This document shows, piece after piece, positions 1-39,695 of a stretch of 64,000 bases of DNA. The first letter of the stretch is position 1. Each line of letters starts with the position of its first letter. Location of the stretch: positions 2,419 through 66,418 of the forward strand of contig JAZQOX010000016.1 in assembly GCA_045628105.1 (NCBI GenBank). The letters run 5' to 3'. Origin of the DNA: Clostridia bacterium. GTDB lineage: Bacteria > Bacillota > Clostridia > TANB77 > CAG-508. Under the pieces are notes generated by a model. It made no database searches and was not told where the DNA came from. It saw nothing but the letters and a program-made list of their open reading frames with translations. A program made the translations under genes and the position numbers.

Positions 1-3000
1 GAAAAAGAAAAACACATAGGATATTATTTAATTGGTGATGGAGAAAAAGAGTTAAATAAAAAATTAGGAATAAGAAGAGTAAAAAGTGTAAAAAAAGCAA
101 CAAGTTATATATCTATAATATGGATTTGCACGATAGTATTAAGCACAATTGTTGGATTTTATATTTATAGTAAAATTAATTTGGCAATGTCAATAATAGT
201 AACATGTTTTACGTTTATACCAGTGTCAGAGATTGTTATACAAGTAATAAACTACATTTTAGGAAAGGTAATTAAACCAAGCTTAATACCAAAACTAAGC
301 TTAAATGATGGAATTCCAGAAGAATATTGTACAATGGTTGTAATACCGACTATTATAAACAGTAAAGAAAAGGTTAAAGAATTATTTCATAAAATAGAAG
401 TATATTATTTGGCAAATAAAGAGGAAAATTTATATTTCAGTTTACTTGGAGATTGTACAGCTTCAAAAAATGAAATGGAACAATTTGATGAAGAAGTAAT
501 AAATGCAGGTATAGAGGAAGCTGAAAAATTAAACAAAAAATATGTTAAAAATAATGAGAAAGATAAGTTTTATTTTTTATACAGAAATCGAGTATGGAGT
601 AGAGGCGAAAAATGTTATTTGGGTTGGGAAAGAAAAAGGGGAATGCTTTGTCAATTTAATGATTTTTTGCTAACAGGTAATAATGAGTTTCGAACAAATA
701 CAATAAAAAACAGACTAAAAATAAAGTATGTAATAACACTAGATTCAGATACAAATCTAGTCCTTGGAACAGCAAAAGAATTAATTGGTGCGATGGCACA
801 TGTTTTAAATAGGCCTGTATTTGATCAAGAAAAAAATGTAATAACATCCGGACATGCATTAATTCAACCAAGAGTAGGTGTAGATTTAAATTCAAGTAGA
901 AAGAGTTTGTTTTCAAAAATATATGCAGGACTAGGAGGAACTGATTCATATACAAATGCAGTATCAGATATATATCAAGATAACTTTGATGAAGGAAGTT
1001 TTACAGGAAAAGGAATATACGATTTAGAATTATTTCACAAAATATTATGTAATGAAATTCCGGAAAACACAGTATTAAGCCACGACTTGTTGGAGGGAAG
1101 TTACTTAAGATGTGGCTTAGCAACAGATATTTTGGTAATGGATGGATTCCCTTTTAAATATTCAAGTTATATGACAAGAGCAAAACGTTGGACAAGAGGA
1201 GACTGGCAAATTTTAGACTGGACAAAAAATGTAATAACAGTTAAAGATAAATCAAAAAAGATAAATCCTTTAAATAAACTATCAAAATTCAAAATACTGG
1301 ACAATTTGAGAAGAAGTTTAATTGCACCAACTGTTACAATACTATTGATAATTTGTGTTATATTAGAAAATTTAAATAAACCTAATAATTTGATATTTTT
1401 ACTAGCTATTATTACATTAACAATACCAACAATTTTAGATATTATAAATCATATCGTTTTCAAGAAGAGTGTTAATACAGAATATATTATGGCTCATAAA
1501 AACATAATTCCATATATTGGGGGAATGAAACTTAGTATTATTAGGGGATTTATAGAACTAATTACTTTACCACATAAAGCATTTTCTATGATAGAATGTA
1601 TTATTAAAACTCTATACAGAATGAAAGTATCTAAACAGAATTTACTTGAATGGATGACTTCAGAAGAAGCAGAACAGCAAAATAAAAATGATTTAAAATC
1701 ATACTTTAAAAATATGCCAGCAAATTGGATTAGTGGATTAATTTTAATAATTTTAGGCATTACAAATTTTAAAATACAATTCTTAATATTTGGCTTTCTT
1801 TTTTTTACAGCTCCAATAATAATATGGTATATAAGTCAAGAAGAGAAAGAAAATAATCCAGTAAAAGAGTTATCTACTGAAAATGTAGATTATTTAAAAG
1901 AAATAGCAAAAAAAACATGGGAGTTTTTCTATGAAAATATAAACGAAAAGAATAATTTTTTACCACCAGATAATTTTCAAGAAGATAGAAAGGAAAAAAT
2001 TGCTCATAGGACATCACCAACAAATATAGGGTTAGGCCTTTTAACAATATGTGCTGGATGCGATATGAAATTCATATCTAAGGACGAAGCAATGGAATTA
2101 ATAGAAAAAATGTTGTCAACAATAGAGAAAATGCAAAAATGGAATGGACATTTATACAACTGGTATAATACATTAAACTTGGAACCACTAATTCCAAAAT
2201 ATGTTTCAACTGTAGATAGTGGAAATTTTATAGGATATCTTTTAACATTAAAGCAATTTATTATTGAAATAGGTGATAAAAGAAAAGACAACATTTTAAA
2301 CATTTTGGATAAATTAATAGATAACACAAAATTTTCAGTATTATACGATTCCCAAAAGAGACTTTTCTCAATAGGCTTTAATGTTGAAGAAAATAAACTT
2401 ACAGATTCATATTACGATTTATTAGCATCAGAAGCAAGACAAGCAAGTTTAATTGCAATTGCAAAAAGAGAAGTGCCAAGTAAACATTGGGGATATTTAA
2501 GCAGAACGCTTACAAATTTACACAGATATAAAGGATTAATTTCGTGGTCTGGTACAGCTTTTGAATATTTAATGCCAAATATAAATGTTAGAACATACAA
2601 AGGAAGCGTGCTAGATGAATCATGTAGATTTATGCTGATGAGTCAAAAAGAATATGCAAAAAAAGTAGGAATACCATGGGGTATATCAGAAGCCGCATTT
2701 AATTTAAGAGATTTAAATAATAATTATCAGTATAAGGCATTTGGAATACCATGGCTTGGATTAAAAAGAGGACTAGAAGAAGACATGGTTGTGTCATCAT
2801 ATGCAATTTTTCTAAGCTTAATGTATGATCCAAAAGGTGCAATAGCAAATTTGAAAATTTTAGAAAATCAAGGCATGTTTGGAAAATATGGCTTTTATGA
2901 ATCAATAGATTATACCACAGATAGATTGAGCTATGGAAAATTATATGAACCAGTTAGAACATATATGGCACATCATCAAGGCCTAATTCTTTTATCAATT

Positions 3001-6000
3001 AATAATTTAATTAACAATAATATTTTTGTAAAACGATTTGAAAAAAATCCAGAAATAGAAGCTGTAGATATTTTGCTACAAGAAAGAATGCCAGAGAAAG
3101 CAATTATAACAAAGGAAACAAAAGAAAAAGTTGAAAAATTAAAAGTTAAAGATTACGAAAAATATCTAGAAAAGACATATACAAAAATTAATACTCCATT
3201 AAATGAAATTAATGTTATATCAAATGGAAAGTATACAATAGTATCAGATTTAAAAGGAAATGGATATAGTAAATTAAACAATATTATGATTAATAGATAT
3301 AAAGAAACAGCAGATTATAAACAAGGAATTATATTTTATATTAAAAATTTAACAACAAAACAAGTATATTCAAATTTACCTGAAAAAGGAAGTAAGGTGA
3401 TATTTGCACCAGATAAAATAATATATGATAAAACAGAAGGAAATATAAATGTAAAAACAAAAATAACAGTTTCACCAGAGGAAAACGTAGAAATTCGAAG
3501 GCTAGAATTAACCAATAACGGAATAGGAACGGAAACAATAGAAGTTACAAGTTATTTTGAACCAGTACTTTCAACAGCAGAACAGGATTATGCACATCCT
3601 GCATTCAATAATTTGTTTTTAAATTATAAAGCAACAAATGGAAATATAATTGTTAAAAGAAAAAAAAGAGGACATAAACAAAAAGATATTTATATGGGTG
3701 TCAATTTGTATCCTGAAAACGAGACGGTTGGAGATGTAGAATATGAAATAGATAAAGAAAAAATTCTTGGAAAAGGAAATATAAAAATTCCGGATGCAAT
3801 AAAAAATTCTAGACCATTTTCTAAAAATTTAGGATTAGTTACAGATTCAGGACTAGCGATAAAAAGAACAGTCAAGATTGAACCAGGGAAAGGTGCAACT
3901 TTAGATTTAATTATTACAGTTGGTTATACAGAAGAAATAATAGAGAAAAATTTAAATGATTATTTAAATAAAAATACTGTAAGTAAAACATTTGAACTAG
4001 CTAGAGCAAAAACAGAAGCGGAAACTATGTATTTAGGCTTAACCGGAAATGATATAATAAAATATAAAAAAATATTGGCATATTTATTATTTGAAAATCC
4101 AATGAAGTCAGAAACTATGGGAAAAATATCAAATAGAGTGTATGCACAGAGTGAATTATGGAAGTTTGGAATATCTGGGGATTTACCGATTTTACTTGTA
4201 AAAATAAAAGACGTAAATGATATTCATGTAATAAGAGATGTACTAAAAGCACAGGAATTTTACAGAAGTAAAAACATAAAAATAGATTTAGTAATTTTAA
4301 ATCAAGAGAAAAATAGCTATGAACACTATATAAAATATGATATAGAAAACGAAATTCAAAATAAACAATTGGGCTTTTTAAAAAATACATTTGGAGGAAT
4401 TTATGTAATTAATACGAGCGAAATTACAAAAGAAGATCTTGAATTATTAGAATTTAGAAGTAATTTAAGTTTAGATGCTTCACTTGGAAACATCGAGGCA
4501 CAGCTAAAAGATATGGAAGAAGAATATGAAGAACAAAAAAGTATAATAGGAGAGGAAAACAAAATAGCAATAGTAAATACAAGTGAAGTGGAAACAATAA
4601 ATGAAGATTATTCAGAACTAAAATATTATAATGATTTTGGCGGATTTGATAAAGATGGATTAGAATATAAAATAAAAGTAAACAATGAAAATAAATTACC
4701 AACAGTATGGGTAAACATACTTGCAAATAAAAATTTCGGAACAGTTATAACGCAGAATTTAGGAGGATTTACATGGAGTAAAAATAGTAGACTAAATAGA
4801 ATATCAGCATGGAACAATAATGCGGTTATGGATATTCCATCAGAAATAATATATATAAAAAATAAAGAAACTGGGGAAAACTGGAGTTTAAATCAAAATA
4901 TTTCAGCAAGAAATATGGAATATTATTTAACATATGGATTTGGATATGTTAATTTAAAAACAAAGAAAGATGATATAATTCACGATTTGGATATATTTGT
5001 TGCAAAAGAAAATAGTGTAAAAATAAATCTTTTAAAGCTAAAAAACACATCTAACAAAAAGAAAAAACTAAAAATTTTATACTATATAAAACCAGTATTA
5101 GGAGAAGATGAATTAAAGACAAGTGGATATATAAATGTTGAATTACAAAATAATGTAGTGTTGGCAAAAAATATGTATACAGATAATTTTAAAAATGAAG
5201 TTGTTTATTGTGGAAGTAGTGAAAAAATACTATCATTTACTGGAAGCAAAGAAGATTTTATTGGAGAAAATACAATATGTGAGCCTAAAGCATTAAATAC
5301 AATAGGACTAGGAAATAAAAAAGGGCTAGGTAATAAAACATGCATTGCAGAAGAAATAGAAGTCGCTTTAGAACCATTTGAAAATAAAGAAATTACGCTA
5401 TTTTTAGGAGCAGAAGAAGCCCTAATAAATGCAAAAGACATGGCATACAAATACTCTAAAGTAGCAAATGCAAAAGAAGAATTAAATTTAGTAAAAAGTT
5501 TTTGGTATGAACTATTAACTAGAATTCAAGTAAAAACACCATTAGAATCAATGAATATTATGCTTAACGGGTGGGCAATATATCAAACTATAAATTCAAG
5601 ATTATGGGCAAGAACTGGATATTACCAATCAGGGGGAGCAATAGGCTTTAGAGACCAACTTCAAGATACACTTGGAATTAAATATTTAGAACCAGAGCTA
5701 ATGAAAAATCAAATTATAAAACAAGCAAGTCATCAATTTATTGAAGGAGATGTAGAACATTGGTGGCATGAAGAAACAAAAAGGGGTATAAGAACTAGAT
5801 TTTCAGACGATTTATTATGGCTAGTTTATGTTGTATGCGAATATGTTGAATTTACAGGAGATACAAGTATATTAGATATAGAAACACCATATTTAAAAGG
5901 AGAAGTACTAGAAGATGATGTAGATGAAAGGTATGACCTATACCCAGACTCAGAAATTAAGGAAAGTATTTTAAAACACTGTATAAGAGCAATAGAAAAA

Positions 6001-7005
6001 TCACTAAAATTTGGAGAAAATGGGCTTCCAAAAATAGGCTCAGGGGATTGGAATGACGGAATGAATACAGTAGGCAATAAAAAAAGGGGAGAAAGTGTTT
6101 GGCTAGGATTTTTCCTATATGAGGCATTAAGCCGATTTATCAACATTTGTGGAGAAAAAGTGGATGAAAATAACATAAAACGTTACAAAAACATTCAGGA
6201 AAGCTTAAAAAAAGCACTAAATACAGCAGGCTGGGATGGAAGATGGTTTAAAAGAGCATTTACGGATGACGGAGAACCAATTGGAAGTATAGAAAATGAA
6301 GAATGTAGAATAGATAGCATATCACAAAGTTGGGGAGTAATATCAGGAGCGGCAGAAAATGATAAAAAATATATATCAATGGAAAGCTTAGAAAATCATT
6401 TAATAGATAAAGAAAACGGAATAATCAAACTATTAGATCCGCCATTCAACAAAACAAAAATAGAACCAGGATATATAAAAGCATATCTACCAGGAGTAAG
6501 AGAAAATGGAGGACAATACACACATGCTGCCATGTGGGCAATAATTGCAATGTGCAAATTAGGATTCGGAGATAAAGCAGTAGAATATTATAGAATGATA
6601 AACCCAATAGAACACTCAAGAACAAAAGAAACAGCACTAAAATACAAAGTAGAACCATATGTAATACCAGCAGATATATACGGAGCAGAAAGCTTAATAG
6701 GAAGAGGAGGATGGACCTGGTATACAGGCTCAAGTAGCTGGTTTTATAAAGCAGGAATAGAAAACATACTAGGGCTAAATATCAAAAACAATATATTAAA
6801 AATAGAACCATGTATACCGAAAGACTGGAAAGAATACACTATAAAATACAGATACAAAAACAGCATATACAACATAAAAGTAAAAAACGAAAATGGGAAA
6901 AATACTGGAATAGAAAAATTCTATTTAAACGGAAAAGAAATAGAAGAAAAGCAAATAGAATTAGATGGAAGCGGTGGAATTTATGAAATAGAAGCAATAA
7001 TGTAA
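1..7005 (+). CDS. Giant multidomain glucan synthase-like protein (NdvB/Cgs-like: GT84 glycosyltransferase region, transmembrane block, C-terminal GH94 glycoside-phosphorylase-like domain); 5' end lies upstream of window
   Basis: Frame 1 is open from base 1 with no stop before the annotated Met at 181, so the ORF is 5'-truncated by the window edge and exceeds 2334 aa. The product shows hydrophobic TM clusters in the middle and cellobiose-phosphorylase-like motifs in the C-terminal third. Stop TAA at 7003-7005 is followed by a palindromic repeat and a hairpin terminator. Confidence 0.6.
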   Translation, partial: EKEKHIGYYLIGDGEKELNKKLGIRRVKSVKKATSYISIIWICTIVLSTIVGFYIYSKINLAMSIIVTCFTFIPVSEIVIQVINYILGKVIKPSLIPKLSLNDGIPEEYCTMVVIPTIINSKEKVKELFHKIEVYYLANKEENLYFSLLGDCTASKNEMEQFDEEVINAGIEEAEKLNKKYVKNNEKDKFYFLYRNRVWSRGEKCYLGWERKRGMLCQFNDFLLTGNNEFRTNTIKNRLKIKYVITLDSDTNLVLGTAKELIGAMAHVLNRPVFDQEKNVITSGHALIQPRVGVDLNSSRKSLFSKIYAGLGGTDSYTNAVSDIYQDNFDEGSFTGKGIYDLELFHKILCNEIPENTVLSHDLLEGSYLRCGLATDILVMDGFPFKYSSYMTRAKRWTRGDWQILDWTKNVITVKDKSKKINPLNKLSKFKILDNLRRSLIAPTVTILLIICVILENLNKPNNLIFLLAIITLTIPTILDIINHIVFKKSVNTEYIMAHKNIIPYIGGMKLSIIRGFIELITLPHKAFSMIECIIKTLYRMKVSKQNLLEWMTSEEAEQQNKNDLKSYFKNMPANWISGLILIILGITNFKIQFLIFGFLFFTAPIIIWYISQEEKENNPVKELSTENVDYLKEIAKKTWEFFYENINEKNNFLPPDNFQEDRKEKIAHRTSPTNIGLGLLTICAGCDMKFISKDEAMELIEKMLSTIEKMQKWNGHLYNWYNTLNLEPLIPKYVSTVDSGNFIGYLLTLKQFIIEIGDKRKDNILNILDKLIDNTKFSVLYDSQKRLFSIGFNVEENKLTDSYYDLLASEARQASLIAIAKREVPSKHWGYLSRTLTNLHRYKGLISWSGTAFEYLMPNINVRTYKGSVLDESCRFMLMSQKEYAKKVGIPWGISEAAFNLRDLNNNYQYKAFGIPWLGLKRGLEEDMVVSSYAIFLSLMYDPKGAIANLKILENQGMFGKYGFYESIDYTTDRLSYGKLYEPVRTYMAHHQGLILLSINNLINNNIFVKRFEKNPEIEAVDILLQERMPEKAIITKETKEKVEKLKVKDYEKYLEKTYTKINTPLNEINVISNGKYTIVSDLKGNGYSKLNNIMINRYKETADYKQGIIFYIKNLTTKQVYSNLPEKGSKVIFAPDKIIYDKTEGNINVKTKITVSPEENVEIRRLELTNNGIGTETIEVTSYFEPVLSTAEQDYAHPAFNNLFLNYKATNGNIIVKRKKRGHKQKDIYMGVNLYPENETVGDVEYEIDKEKILGKGNIKIPDAIKNSRPFSKNLGLVTDSGLAIKRTVKIEPGKGATLDLIITVGYTEEIIEKNLNDYLNKNTVSKTFELARAKTEAETMYLGLTGNDIIKYKKILAYLLFENPMKSETMGKISNRVYAQSELWKFGISGDLPILLVKIKDVNDIHVIRDVLKAQEFYRSKNIKIDLVILNQEKNSYEHYIKYDIENEIQNKQLGFLKNTFGGIYVINTSEITKEDLELLEFRSNLSLDASLGNIEAQLKDMEEEYEEQKSIIGEENKIAIVNTSEVETINEDYSELKYYNDFGGFDKDGLEYKIKVNNENKLPTVWVNILANKNFGTVITQNLGGFTWSKNSRLNRISAWNNNAVMDIPSEIIYIKNKETGENWSLNQNISARNMEYYLTYGFGYVNLKTKKDDIIHDLDIFVAKENSVKINLLKLKNTSNKKKKLKILYYIKPVLGEDELKTSGYINVELQNNVVLAKNMYTDNFKNEVVYCGSSEKILSFTGSKEDFIGENTICEPKALNTIGLGNKKGLGNKTCIAEEIEVALEPFENKEITLFLGAEEALINAKDMAYKYSKVANAKEELNLVKSFWYELLTRIQVKTPLESMNIMLNGWAIYQTINSRLWARTGYYQSGGAIGFRDQLQDTLGIKYLEPELMKNQIIKQASHQFIEGDVEHWWHEETKRGIRTRFSDDLLWLVYVVCEYVEFTGDTSILDIETPYLKGEVLEDDVDERYDLYPDSEIKESILKHCIRAIEKSLKFGENGLPKIGSGDWNDGMNTVGNKKRGESVWLGFFLYEALSRFINICGEKVDENNIKRYKNIQESLKKALNTAGWDGRWFKRAFTDDGEPIGSIENEECRIDSISQSWGVISGAAENDKKYISMESLENHLIDKENGIIKLLDPPFNKTKIEPGYIKAYLPGVRENGGQYTHAAMWAIIAMCKLGFGDKAVEYYRMINPIEHSRTKETALKYKVEPYVIPADIYGAESLIGRGGWTWYTGSSSWFYKAGIENILGLNIKNNILKIEPCIPKDWKEYTIKYRYKNSIYNIKVKNENGKNTGIEKFYLNGKEIEEKQIELDGSGGIYEIEAIM

Positions 7006-39040: not shown

Positions 39041-39409
39041 ATGTATAAAGAAATTTTACATTACATCGAGTTTGCGTTCCATGGAAGATATCCATGGAAC
39101 GCACATGAGGTTCAGCCTTTTCAGCCAGGAGACGAGTTGAAAATACCCGTTGATTGCATCGGGTACAGATTCTTTGACAAGATTCTGTACGACGAAGGCG
39201 ATGAGGAAGTTATCGGGGCAAGACGGAATATTACCGGTTATACATACCTGGGTGAAGAATACACCGTCGAGGAAATTGAAAGTAATTTCCCTGATAAATC
39301 CCCATTTATCAAATGGTTGAAAGATAACGGCTACAAGCGTGCCGTTAAGACCTACGCAAACAAGTGGGTTCCGCTGGAAGAAACGGACCAAGTGAGGCAA
39401 CCTCAGTAA
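39041..39409 (+). CDS. GC-rich hypothetical protein (122 aa) of probable foreign origin
   Basis: ATG with RBS GAGGAGAAAG; codon usage/GC (~45-50%) sharply different from host genes (~28%); followed by hairpin terminator 39414-39446. Confidence 0.55.
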   Translation: MYKEILHYIEFAFHGRYPWNAHEVQPFQPGDELKIPVDCIGYRFFDKILYDEGDEEVIGARRNITGYTYLGEEYTVEEIESNFPDKSPFIKWLKDNGYKRAVKTYANKWVPLEETDQVRQPQ

Positions 39410-39448
39410 AAAAGAAAAAGGATCTCTCATTATGAGGGATTCTTTTTT

Positions 39449-39619
39449 TGGCTGGGGTGGGAGGACTGCGACGAGCCGCGTCGGAAAAATAGTCCACCGG
39501 ACTATTTTTACCTGCGTTTCGGCAAGCTTTAACTTGCTCGAAACTTGGCGACCTCCTTTTCGAGCCCTCCCGTTTAAATTAAAAATATAAATCCTCCGGT
39601 TACACCGAAGGATTTTTTT
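39449..39619 (-). repeat. GC-rich structured element copy 2 (homolog of 20225-20377), beginning with a 19-nt direct repeat of the tRNA-Gln 3' end (39449-39467)
   Basis: TGGCTGGGGTGGGAGGACT (39449-39467) duplicates the tRNA-Gln 3' terminus at 39620-39638. The internal ~110 nt align to the ssrA-adjacent copy with compensatory changes in two hairpins. Confidence 0.75.
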
Positions 39620-39695
39620 TGGCTGGGGTGGGAGGACTCGAACCGCCGAAATGCTAGAGTCAAAGTCTAGTGCCTTACCACTTGGCTACACCCCA
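39620..39695 (-). tRNA. tRNA-Gln (anticodon TTG)
   Basis: TGGGGTG...CACCCCAGCCA acceptor, anticodon loop CTTTGAC. Confidence 0.85.

Follow-up and report, generated by a model that had tools for sequence, protein, structure and literature searches.

A protein-less module with a covarying folded core behind clostridial tRNA and tmRNA genes: a probable non-autonomous integrative cassette

The region at positions 39449–39619 (minus strand) of a 64,000-nucleotide stretch of a Clostridia bacterium contig (JAZQOX010000016.1, positions 2,419 to 66,418; the whole stretch is referred to as the window) lies directly downstream of a tRNA-Gln(UUG) gene. On balance, it probably belongs to a family of non-autonomous integrative cassettes that enter tRNA and transfer-messenger RNA (tmRNA) genes at the T-loop by means of an enzyme acting in trans. 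More than 70 copies of the module were found in 56 further genome and metagenome loci, where a covarying, folded core is preceded by a 13-nt segment antisense to the T-arm of the neighbouring gene (referred to as the A-block) and followed by a copy of the 3′ end of that gene. No description of this module family was found in the literature searched, and the family appears to be undescribed.

The module at tRNA-Gln and its sister copy

The tRNA-Gln(UUG) gene that was presumably invaded is located at 39620–39695 on the minus strand (as identified by ARAGORN, with a score of 58.4 bits for the Rfam tRNA model), and the module is read in the same direction. Between the tRNA and the module lies a hairpin resembling an intrinsic terminator, with an A-run and a T-run (referred to as Te; 39579–39619, (–)), the 12-bp stem of which extends from 39615 to 39589 (–). 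It is followed by a spacer (39572–39578, (–)) that, as read directly from the sequence, has TTTAAAC at its end, and by the A-block GGGAGGGCTCGAA (39559–39571, (–)). The A-block is the reverse complement of TTCGAGTCCTCCC (39630–39642, (–)), i.e., the T-loop and the 3′ strand of the T-stem of the tRNA (positions 54–66), with which it pairs at 13 of 13 positions, one of them as G-T. The conserved core of ~90–95 nt (39468–39558, (–); 116.4 bits with the covariance model) then consists, in this order, of the junction AAAAGGAGGTCGCCAA, a first hairpin (P2; 39544–39516), GCAGGT, a second hairpin (P3; 39509–39485), and the linker CCGACGCGGCTCGTCGC.

Directly behind the core, the sequence AGTCCTCCCACCCCAGCCA (referred to as the 3′ copy; 39449–39467, (–)) duplicates positions 58–76 of tRNA-Gln and fully matches the last 19 nt of the gene (39638–39620), CCA included, as an earlier note on this region had claimed. 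We read this 3′ copy as the displaced original 3′ end of the gene, comparable to an attR. Past it lie an A-run and a second terminator hairpin (Th; 39408–39448, (–)), which is unrelated to Te and also terminates the convergent host gene at 39041–39409 (+). Th would then be the original terminator of tRNA-Gln, and the present 3′ part of the gene (from the T-loop onwards) would have been supplied by the element upon insertion, together with Te.

The same module occurs a second time in the window, at the tmRNA gene (ssrA; 19847–20202, (+)), and both regions indeed proved to be copies of one module. This sister unit (20203–20377, (+); 110.5 bits with the covariance model) comprises a Te (20203–20245, (+)), the A-block GGAGGGAGTCGAA (20255–20267, (+)), a core (20268–20361, (+)), and the 3′ copy CCCTCCATCTCCACCA (20362–20377, (+)). 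Its A-block is the perfect complement of the tmRNA target segment TTCGACTCCCTCC (20180–20192, (+)), pairing at 13/13 positions, and its 3′ copy is an exact copy of the tmRNA end over 16 nt only, so that the match of 16–19 nt to a host RNA put forward earlier holds over 19 nt at tRNA-Gln and is limited to 16 nt here. The tRNA-Gln core aligns with 20268–20349 without gaps but for one column, and mean column identity over the whole alignment of the two modules is 80%. Moreover, the paired substitutions described between them are real, both in the first stem (AATAGTCC/GGACTATT at tRNA-Gln vs. AGATGTCC/GGACATCT at ssrA) and in the second (GCAAG/CTTGC vs. GCAGG/CCTGC). A degenerate 39-nt core pattern matched these two places only in the window (0 expected from 100 shuffles), and the covariance model recovered exactly two full copies over the 64 kb (116 and 110 bits).

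Additionally, a remnant of a second ssrA-type unit is present at 20494–20543 (+). Of this unit, the 3′ half of Te and the spacer are left, along with an A-block GGAGGGAGTCGAA (20526–20538) that is still intact, and the remnant stops right after GAAAAAGG. A truncation at the same point (i.e., after …CGAAAAG) was observed at L043:1700–1765, L-numbers being the labels of loci found in the scans described below.

A family with one core and many targets

Relatives were sought by scanning one genome per species with one pattern, which yielded 14 true loci, and metagenome contigs with another pattern, which yielded 41 more. Five scans of viral contigs gave one true match (L001), a host tRNA locus bordering a prophage, with endolysin and helix-turn-helix (HTH) genes upstream. 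Matches at L002, L003, L016, L035, L038, L044, L046, and L054 turned out to be chance matches within coding DNA and were discarded. Copies were scored across loci with a covariance model (R1). The carriers are uncultured, low-GC Clostridia of the gut. Nearly all relatives are metagenome-assembled genomes (MAGs) or metagenome contigs, and save for a few differently labelled bins their contigs are labelled as uncultured Clostridia or Clostridium.

All copies lie in sense orientation just 3′ of the end of a tRNA or tmRNA gene, and both the A-block and the 3′ copy match the neighbouring gene in every locus; the variable 3′ segment thus always corresponds to an adjacent stable RNA. Nine targets were assigned (tRNA-Gln-UUG, Gln-CUG, Phe-GAA, Leu-UAA, Leu-CAA, Arg-ACG, Gly-UCC, Tyr-GUA, and tmRNA), next to two without assignment, and the modules are patchily distributed among tRNAs and genomes. 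In most members a TAAA(A/C/T) motif directly precedes the A-block. Since 27 of 37 Te variants share the hairpin apex AGC-N3-4-GCT, also across units for different tRNAs, Te looks like a homologous part of the element. The same apex was also seen in some host terminators, which fits a past capture of host terminators.

One clearly divergent member was encountered at a tRNA-Leu(UAA) gene (L032:11163–11271, (+); 80 bits). It has another, longer P2 (GCTCATTAGATTGC…GCAATCAATGAGC), and GCAGGYAAAA/TTTTCYGAC are replaced by GAAGGCTAAAA/TTTTACCGAC, so that the family is wider than the reach of exact-pattern scans.

The A-block, taken for a constant part of the module in the earlier note, varies in its 5′ part, which is antisense to the T-arm of the neighbouring gene. 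Across ten target types, A-blocks pair with their own T-arm at 12–13 of 13 positions (vs. a mean of 10.4 for non-cognate combinations), and every A-block reaches its top score with its own tRNA type. The pairing with the T-loop also covaries, in that TTCAA targets have TTGAA A-blocks (L001, L057). Furthermore, the A-block reaches across the G57/A58 junction in the live tRNA. It usually fits the live gene better than the 3′ copy of its own unit (13 vs. 6–9 nt in the window). Since a G-T position between A-block and target would be A-C on the other strand, pairing appears to involve the sense strand, with sense polarity. It is this antisense A-block that does look guide-like, and not the 16–19-nt 3′ segment that had been proposed as a guide, as the latter behaves as a displaced 3′ end and is decayed or truncated in older copies.

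The core itself is composed of two covarying hairpins (P2 and P3) and invariant junction strands. In an alignment of 31 distinct cores (A3; with the chimeric L021 left out), 98.9% of the P2 and P3 cells were paired, and both sides had changed in 8/11 pairs of P2 and in 5/11 pairs of P3. None of 500 shuffles reached the observed values for pairing or covariation, and pairing was halved when the partner strand was slid by 1–3 columns as a control. The covariation noticed earlier between the two window copies therefore extends to 31 distinct family members, with 13–14 base pairs changed on both sides. At least five versions of the P2 stem occur, distinguished by changes at several paired positions (GTTTCGAGCAGG, GTTTCAACTGG, GTTTTGAGCAGG, GCTCAAGTGCGG, and GTGCAAAG), and the junction strands flanking P2 are unchanged across them. 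Despite this abundant covariation, only 4 of ~800 stem cells are G:U.

Outside the two hairpins, columns 21:94 (the R of GGARG and the Y of TTTTCYGAC) are A:U in 16 cores and G:C in 15, with zero mismatch. Because these columns covary perfectly, the alignment indicates a further putative helix, GGARG/CYGAC, perhaps with tandem G-A, which would compete with GCAGG/CYGAC at the base of P3. In single-sequence folds, the A-block pairs with the start of the 3′ copy, closing a multi-branched structure (z = –5.8 and –4.9). Within this predicted helix (P1), three of eight predicted pairs have changed on both sides, varying with the target, and pair 5:119 occurs as UA (6), GC (5), AU (5), and CG (1).

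The chimeric locus (L021:2749–3100) is the sole breaker of the 21:94 covariation among 35 distinct cores (GGAAG with CCGAC). Here a tRNA-Leu(UAA), with its Te and A-block, is joined within the core to an L001-type P3, 3′ copy, and flank, which may stem from recombination between two modules or be an assembly chimera of this contig (with 3× coverage).

A shorter subfamily lacks P2 (GGAGGATCAGAAAA-P3-TTTTCCCGACGCGG) and was found at tRNA-Tyr (L025:854–965, (–)) and at tRNA-Leu-UAA (L024:4772–4839 and L061:4076–4143, (+)). A P2-less unit always sits beside a full-length unit, distally in L025 and proximally in L024/L061. This subfamily reduces the minimal conserved core to the A-block, GAAAAGGAGG, P3, and CCGACGCGGCT. 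No conserved reading frame was found in the module on either strand, and a small protein was rejected as an explanation, since 1-nt differences in hairpin length shift every frame and the changes in the stems are compensatory.

Insertion, tandem arrays, cargo and decay

The module appears to have been inserted behind its tRNA, rather than being a native trailer, since the same unit with the same Te is found in different host flanks. Specifically, this is the case for a tRNA-Tyr unit (L025 vs. L034/L062), and a tRNA-Phe unit is followed by four different downstream sequences (L015, L027, L033, and L031), at varying distance from the same proS gene. Moreover, units are repeated head-to-tail with a period of 157–165 nt, in arrays of two (L007, L013, L039, L042, and L050), three (L015/L052), or at least five units (L055).

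Cargo was found as well. In L018/L036 (1460–5480), a single unit contains a 4-kb restriction-modification cargo without a recombinase, positioned between the copy of the tRNA-Arg 3′ end and the terminator-spacer-A-block part. It comprises genes for two methyltransferases, a putative endonuclease, and an HTH protein, which lie antisense to the tRNA and behind internal terminators. An ORF6N-domain gene occupies the cargo position in L043 and L031, at tRNA-Leu and tRNA-Phe modules, respectively. The ORF6N-domain protein (~320 aa; within L043:200–1770, and on the reverse strand in the first 1300 nt past the module in L031) has a C-terminal HxDR motif resembling phospholipase D (PLD). In L043, part of a large-serine-recombinase gene (…WRYSTIQKILENRVYMGDYE) lies ahead of this gene, and a truncated unit lies behind it.

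Distal units tend to be the worn ones. In L025 the proximal unit is intact, and the distal one belongs to the older P2-less type and has two substitutions in its 3′ copy. The last copy is truncated in L004, L017, and L024 and diverged in L020, and the last unit of the L045 group is cut within P2. Repeated entry at the live T-loop would build such tandem arrays, with the oldest units in distal position. Among the three readings offered in the earlier note, a shared terminal module of integrative elements that target stable RNAs fits these data best, whereas a pure 3′-trailer processing structure leaves the tandem arrays, the cargo units, and the occurrence of one unit in different host flanks unexplained.

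Some tRNAs located upstream of a module consist of their 3′ half only, starting from the anticodon loop or variable region (L048, L060, L064, L026, L025, and L001/L051/L058). Other elements (a prophage with endolysin in L001) therefore seem to have integrated further upstream, the module being kept with the displaced half.

Proposed mobility and competing explanations

The mobile unit that we propose measures ~160 bp, encodes no protein and, if written as a circle, would comprise tRNA positions ~56–76, Te, optional cargo, the spacer, the A-block, the core, and the linker. It would insert into the T-loop of its target, a tRNA or tmRNA gene, close to G57/A58. The invaded gene would keep a working 3′ end and terminator, both from the element, and the original 3′ end would be pushed downstream of the core to become the 3′ copy, a remnant that is no longer selected. 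Since the A-block and core are the sole conserved part of the unit, they are likely its cis-acting mobility determinant, and they may act in single-stranded form, folded and with sense polarity. The A-block could pair with T-arm positions 54/56–66 and either rebuild a duplex half-site of the target or recognize the target directly, and P2, P3, the GGARG/CYGAC helix, and the invariant junction strands could bind the enzyme supplied in trans.

Single-stranded DNA seems somewhat more likely than RNA as the active form, because the module lies between two terminators without a consistent promoter, because G:U is nearly absent from freely covarying stems, and because cargo can be antisense behind internal terminators. 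As to a promoter of its own, only weak and inconsistent –10-like motifs abutting the A-block (TAAAAT and TTTAAAC) were found in the module. GC skew is positive over the whole window, which places the two copies on opposite strands with respect to replication and argues against a strict lagging-strand mechanism (n = 2).

Several observations weigh against this proposal. With G:U allowed, the A-block tells tRNAs apart weakly. At many loci the last copy is followed by a terminator equal to Te, with identity past the last copy usually extending to the end of the T-run and sometimes 10–12 nt beyond (L063, L023/L026). Plain entry of a foreign unit at the T-loop would not lead to this, so that an extra step is needed, i.e., capture of a host terminator or duplicative insertion. 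Furthermore, several lineages have 1-nt indels at the junction of linker and A58, which conservative site-specific recombination does not predict. In the 3′ copy, these indels fall precisely at the boundary of G57 and A58 (CG-c-AGTCC in the window; CG-t-ATTCC, CG-t-AATCC, CG-a-AATCC, and CGAA-CC in other lineages) and may reflect imprecise joining or selection against re-use of the junction. Array lengths and the L021 chimera may be assembly artefacts, given that they come from MAGs or metagenome contigs. Finally, neither an empty site nor an excised circle nor a trans-acting enzyme was encountered, and movement is deduced from comparative anatomy only. Exact look-ups of the L13 and S9 proteins of the window gave no empty site via synteny, and neither did S9 relatives of 86–95% identity, in which the surroundings differ, as islands occupy tRNA-Leu and a tRNA-Gln locus is absent.

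In these close relatives (S9 95% identical; L065:1–4300 and L067/L068, upstream of rplM), the mobile islands are located at tRNA-Leu(UAA). One of them encodes a tyrosine integrase along with an HTH_17 protein and a D5_N primase, and another a rolling-circle Rep (REP_ORF2-G2P). At the corresponding place the window contains only a small gene. No copy of the module is present there.

Candidate enzymes were looked for in the flanks of the 56 loci, and no integrase, transposase, Cas/Tns, TnpB, or reverse transcriptase gene was found near any copy. Clustering of 418 open reading frames (ORFs) from all flanks yielded host synteny groups only, and the recurring ORF6N-domain gene was rejected as an enzyme candidate as it recurs as cargo. 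Likewise, the genomic, metagenomic, and viral scans revealed neither the core on a protein-coding mobile element nor the intact, recombinase-bearing elements that the earlier note had suggested looking for. A blastn search of 50,697 phage and 72,556 plasmid records gave no match, and a phage or plasmid origin was dismissed on this basis, the sole true match on a viral contig being a host tRNA locus. With Rfam 15, the window matched tRNA and tmRNA models only; the module had no match even at E = 10, and the best score was 21 bits (vs. a threshold of 60). Self-cleaving ribozymes (hammerhead, twister, pistol, hatchet, and others) gave no Rfam match at E ≤ 10 either; the module has a CUGA-like motif but lacks the hammerhead core.

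Known systems with protein-less or hairpin-bounded elements provide parallels, but none was seen to match on all of its defining features. Integron attC sites and integrative mobile elements exploiting Xer recombination (IMEX) of the CTX-phage type, which use host XerCD at their attP, share with the module protein-less units in tandem arrays, an enzyme acting in trans, and a site formed by intrastrand pairing of two inverted segments ~60–100 nt apart. Unlike in these systems, the target here is a tRNA T-loop and not attI or dif, there is no adjacent IntI gene, the intervening region is highly conserved (it is variable in attC), and the presumed crossover lies at the inner instead of the outer end of the stem. 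Both were therefore rejected as identities. The ends of IS200/IS605 elements similarly have strand-specific hairpins, a segment 5′ of these hairpins that base-pairs with a cleavage or target site on their 3′ side, no classical target duplication, and a similar spacing (~19 nt left and 9–10 nt right). The hairpins and internal pairing are thus present in the module, but its pairing extends over 13 nt instead of 4, its left and right hairpins are dissimilar, no TnpA or TnpB was found near the copies, the two window copies show no lagging-strand bias, and the element carries the 3′ part of its target.

A more far-reaching version of the proposed cassette would make the A-block, core, and 3′ segment a protein-less address label, by which an enzyme encoded elsewhere in the genome could be programmed through pairing to integrate at any tRNA or tmRNA T-loop. 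We regard this as doubtful, if conceivable. The label would consist of 13 nt antisense and ~20 nt sense, and it would amount to a new kind of nucleic-acid-guided DNA integration, with RNA or folded single-stranded DNA as the guide, that could be respecified by changing the two flanks.

It is, in our estimate, unlikely that the transcribed scaffold and its flanks form a natural guide RNA for an enzyme located elsewhere, such as a bridge-RNA-like recombinase or a TnpB/IscB-like nuclease. In the T-arm region, the A-block would then be matched to the sense strand and the 3′ copy to the template strand, leading to integration at, or homing cleavage of, unoccupied tRNA genes. Several features are consistent with this idea, namely a scaffold with variable ends over at least nine targets, a complex conserved junction with competing helices as is typical of functional RNAs, G-T positions between A-block and target that fit pairing with the sense strand only, and a scaffold followed by a flank-derived 3′ segment, as in TnpB omega-RNAs. 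The better fit of the A-block to the live tRNA than to its own copy also looks as if self-pairing or self-targeting were avoided. Nevertheless, no such enzyme gene lies within ~4–10 kb of any of the 56 loci, and Rfam, its transposon-associated RNA families included, gave no match. Moreover, the terminators on both sides and the inconsistent promoter motifs, the decay of the 3′ copy in old units, and the scarcity of G:U in the stems speak against a guide RNA, and in the pattern scans the core was found only by tRNA ends and never at the end of a protein-coding transposon.

Like the module, IS110 bridge RNAs, TnpB omega-RNAs, and the CRISPR RNAs of CRISPR-associated transposons (CASTs) combine a conserved scaffold with short target-matching segments, and both target strands are addressed (antisense by the A-block and sense by the 3′ copy). 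Unlike in these systems, there are no recombinase, nuclease, Cas, or Tns genes nearby, no guide loops, and no CRISPR repeat, and the 3′ “guide” decays in old copies. A Tn7-like CAST homing guide, with which the earlier note had compared the module, was dismissed as neither a CRISPR repeat nor cas, tnsB/tnsC/tniQ, or Tn7 ends were found near any copy. An IS110 bridge or seek RNA was rejected because there is no adjacent recombinase, P2 and P3 are near-perfect hairpins without guide loops, and 16–21 nt are duplicated. A TnpB/IscB omega-RNA was rejected because, despite the scaffold-then-flank geometry, no nuclease gene occurs at any locus and no Rfam match was obtained.

We also consider it improbable that the modules are ordinary leftovers of tyrosine-integrase islands at tRNA T-loops, i.e., attL-attR or attP-only remnants resembling cis-mobilizable elements (CIMEs), in which the hairpins would be terminators insulating the island and the conserved strands would be arm sites for integrase, excisionase, or DNA-bending proteins. 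Such islands insert in the T-loop, provide the gene with a replacement 3′ end from the element, and leave the displaced end as a direct repeat, and the module correspondingly has a direct repeat of the 3′ segment next to an intact gene (19 nt at tRNA-Gln, 16 nt at tmRNA, and likewise in the 56 loci). Such a repeat of the 3′ part, gene restoration, and tandem accretion are hallmarks of tyrosine integrases and CIMEs, and cargo without its own recombinase is known there too. In addition, ~160 bp is the size of a complete attP, P3 resembles a bidirectional terminator (A-run, hairpin, T-run), and a close relative (95% identical S9) has a tyrosine-integrase island at tRNA-Leu(UAA).

What sets the module apart from these remnants is that its units measure only ~160 bp and that a near-identical core serves at least nine targets, whereas an integrase family usually keeps to a single site. 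No integrase was present in the flanks of any locus, and the genomic, metagenomic, and viral scans yielded no integrase-bearing, full-length parent element with the core. Furthermore, P2 has no T-run, yet 8/11 of its pairs covary, and neither the isolated 21:94 covariation nor the antisense copy of the target in the A-block has a role in a double-stranded arm site.

A host-beneficial noncoding RNA tied to its tRNA, serving in read-through or quality control, as a decoy, or as a splint-plus-spare-part for the repair of tRNAs cut in the T-loop, is very improbable: nucleases of the tRNA T-loop and 3′ tail exist, the A-block is complementary to both sides of 57/58, the module carries the matching 58–76 fragment, and its structure is strongly conserved, but the tandem arrays, cargo units, truncated copies, and differing flanks of one unit are left unexplained, the decay of copies points to weak selection at the host level, the upstream terminator limits expression, and the distribution among tRNAs and genomes is patchy.

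If the proposed cassettes are real, they would be the smallest tRNA-targeting integrative elements described (~160 bp and gene-less), with a ~95-nt core re-addressed to at least nine stable-RNA genes via a 13-nt antisense segment and a carried 3′ end. They would also point to a recombinase or transposase that recognizes a structured single strand and finds its target by base pairing, and such an enzyme would be of interest for programmable DNA insertion. Even as integrase-less remnants, the modules would offer a natural data set on tRNA-target switching, on the capture of terminators and cargo, and on the growth and decay of arrays at tRNA genes of uncultured gut Clostridia.

Some minor features of the window complete the picture. 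A tRNA-His gene (39802–39726, (–)) precedes tRNA-Gln(UUG) (39695–39620) on the minus strand according to ARAGORN, and the neighbouring genes in the window encode FtsK, a MiaB-like enzyme, a peroxiredoxin, a sigma factor, PFOR, UvrC, L13/S9, and ABC transporters. By eye, the linker resembles the 5′ half of the tRNA-Gln T-stem, and GCCAAGT resembles the D-arm of this tRNA, likenesses that chance could explain. In tRNA-Gln(UUG) itself, the T-stem (GGCGG/CCTCC; 39646–39650/39631–39635, (–)) has a C-U mismatch at 51:63, as it has in L005 and L063, and the A-block follows the 3′ strand of this stem (GGAGG) and not the 5′ strand. The ORF of 122 aa at 39041–39409 (+), between tRNA-Leu and the tRNA-Gln module, has a G+C content visibly above that of its surroundings and no Pfam match, and an ORF of 2274 aa is located at the start of the window (181–7005, (+)).

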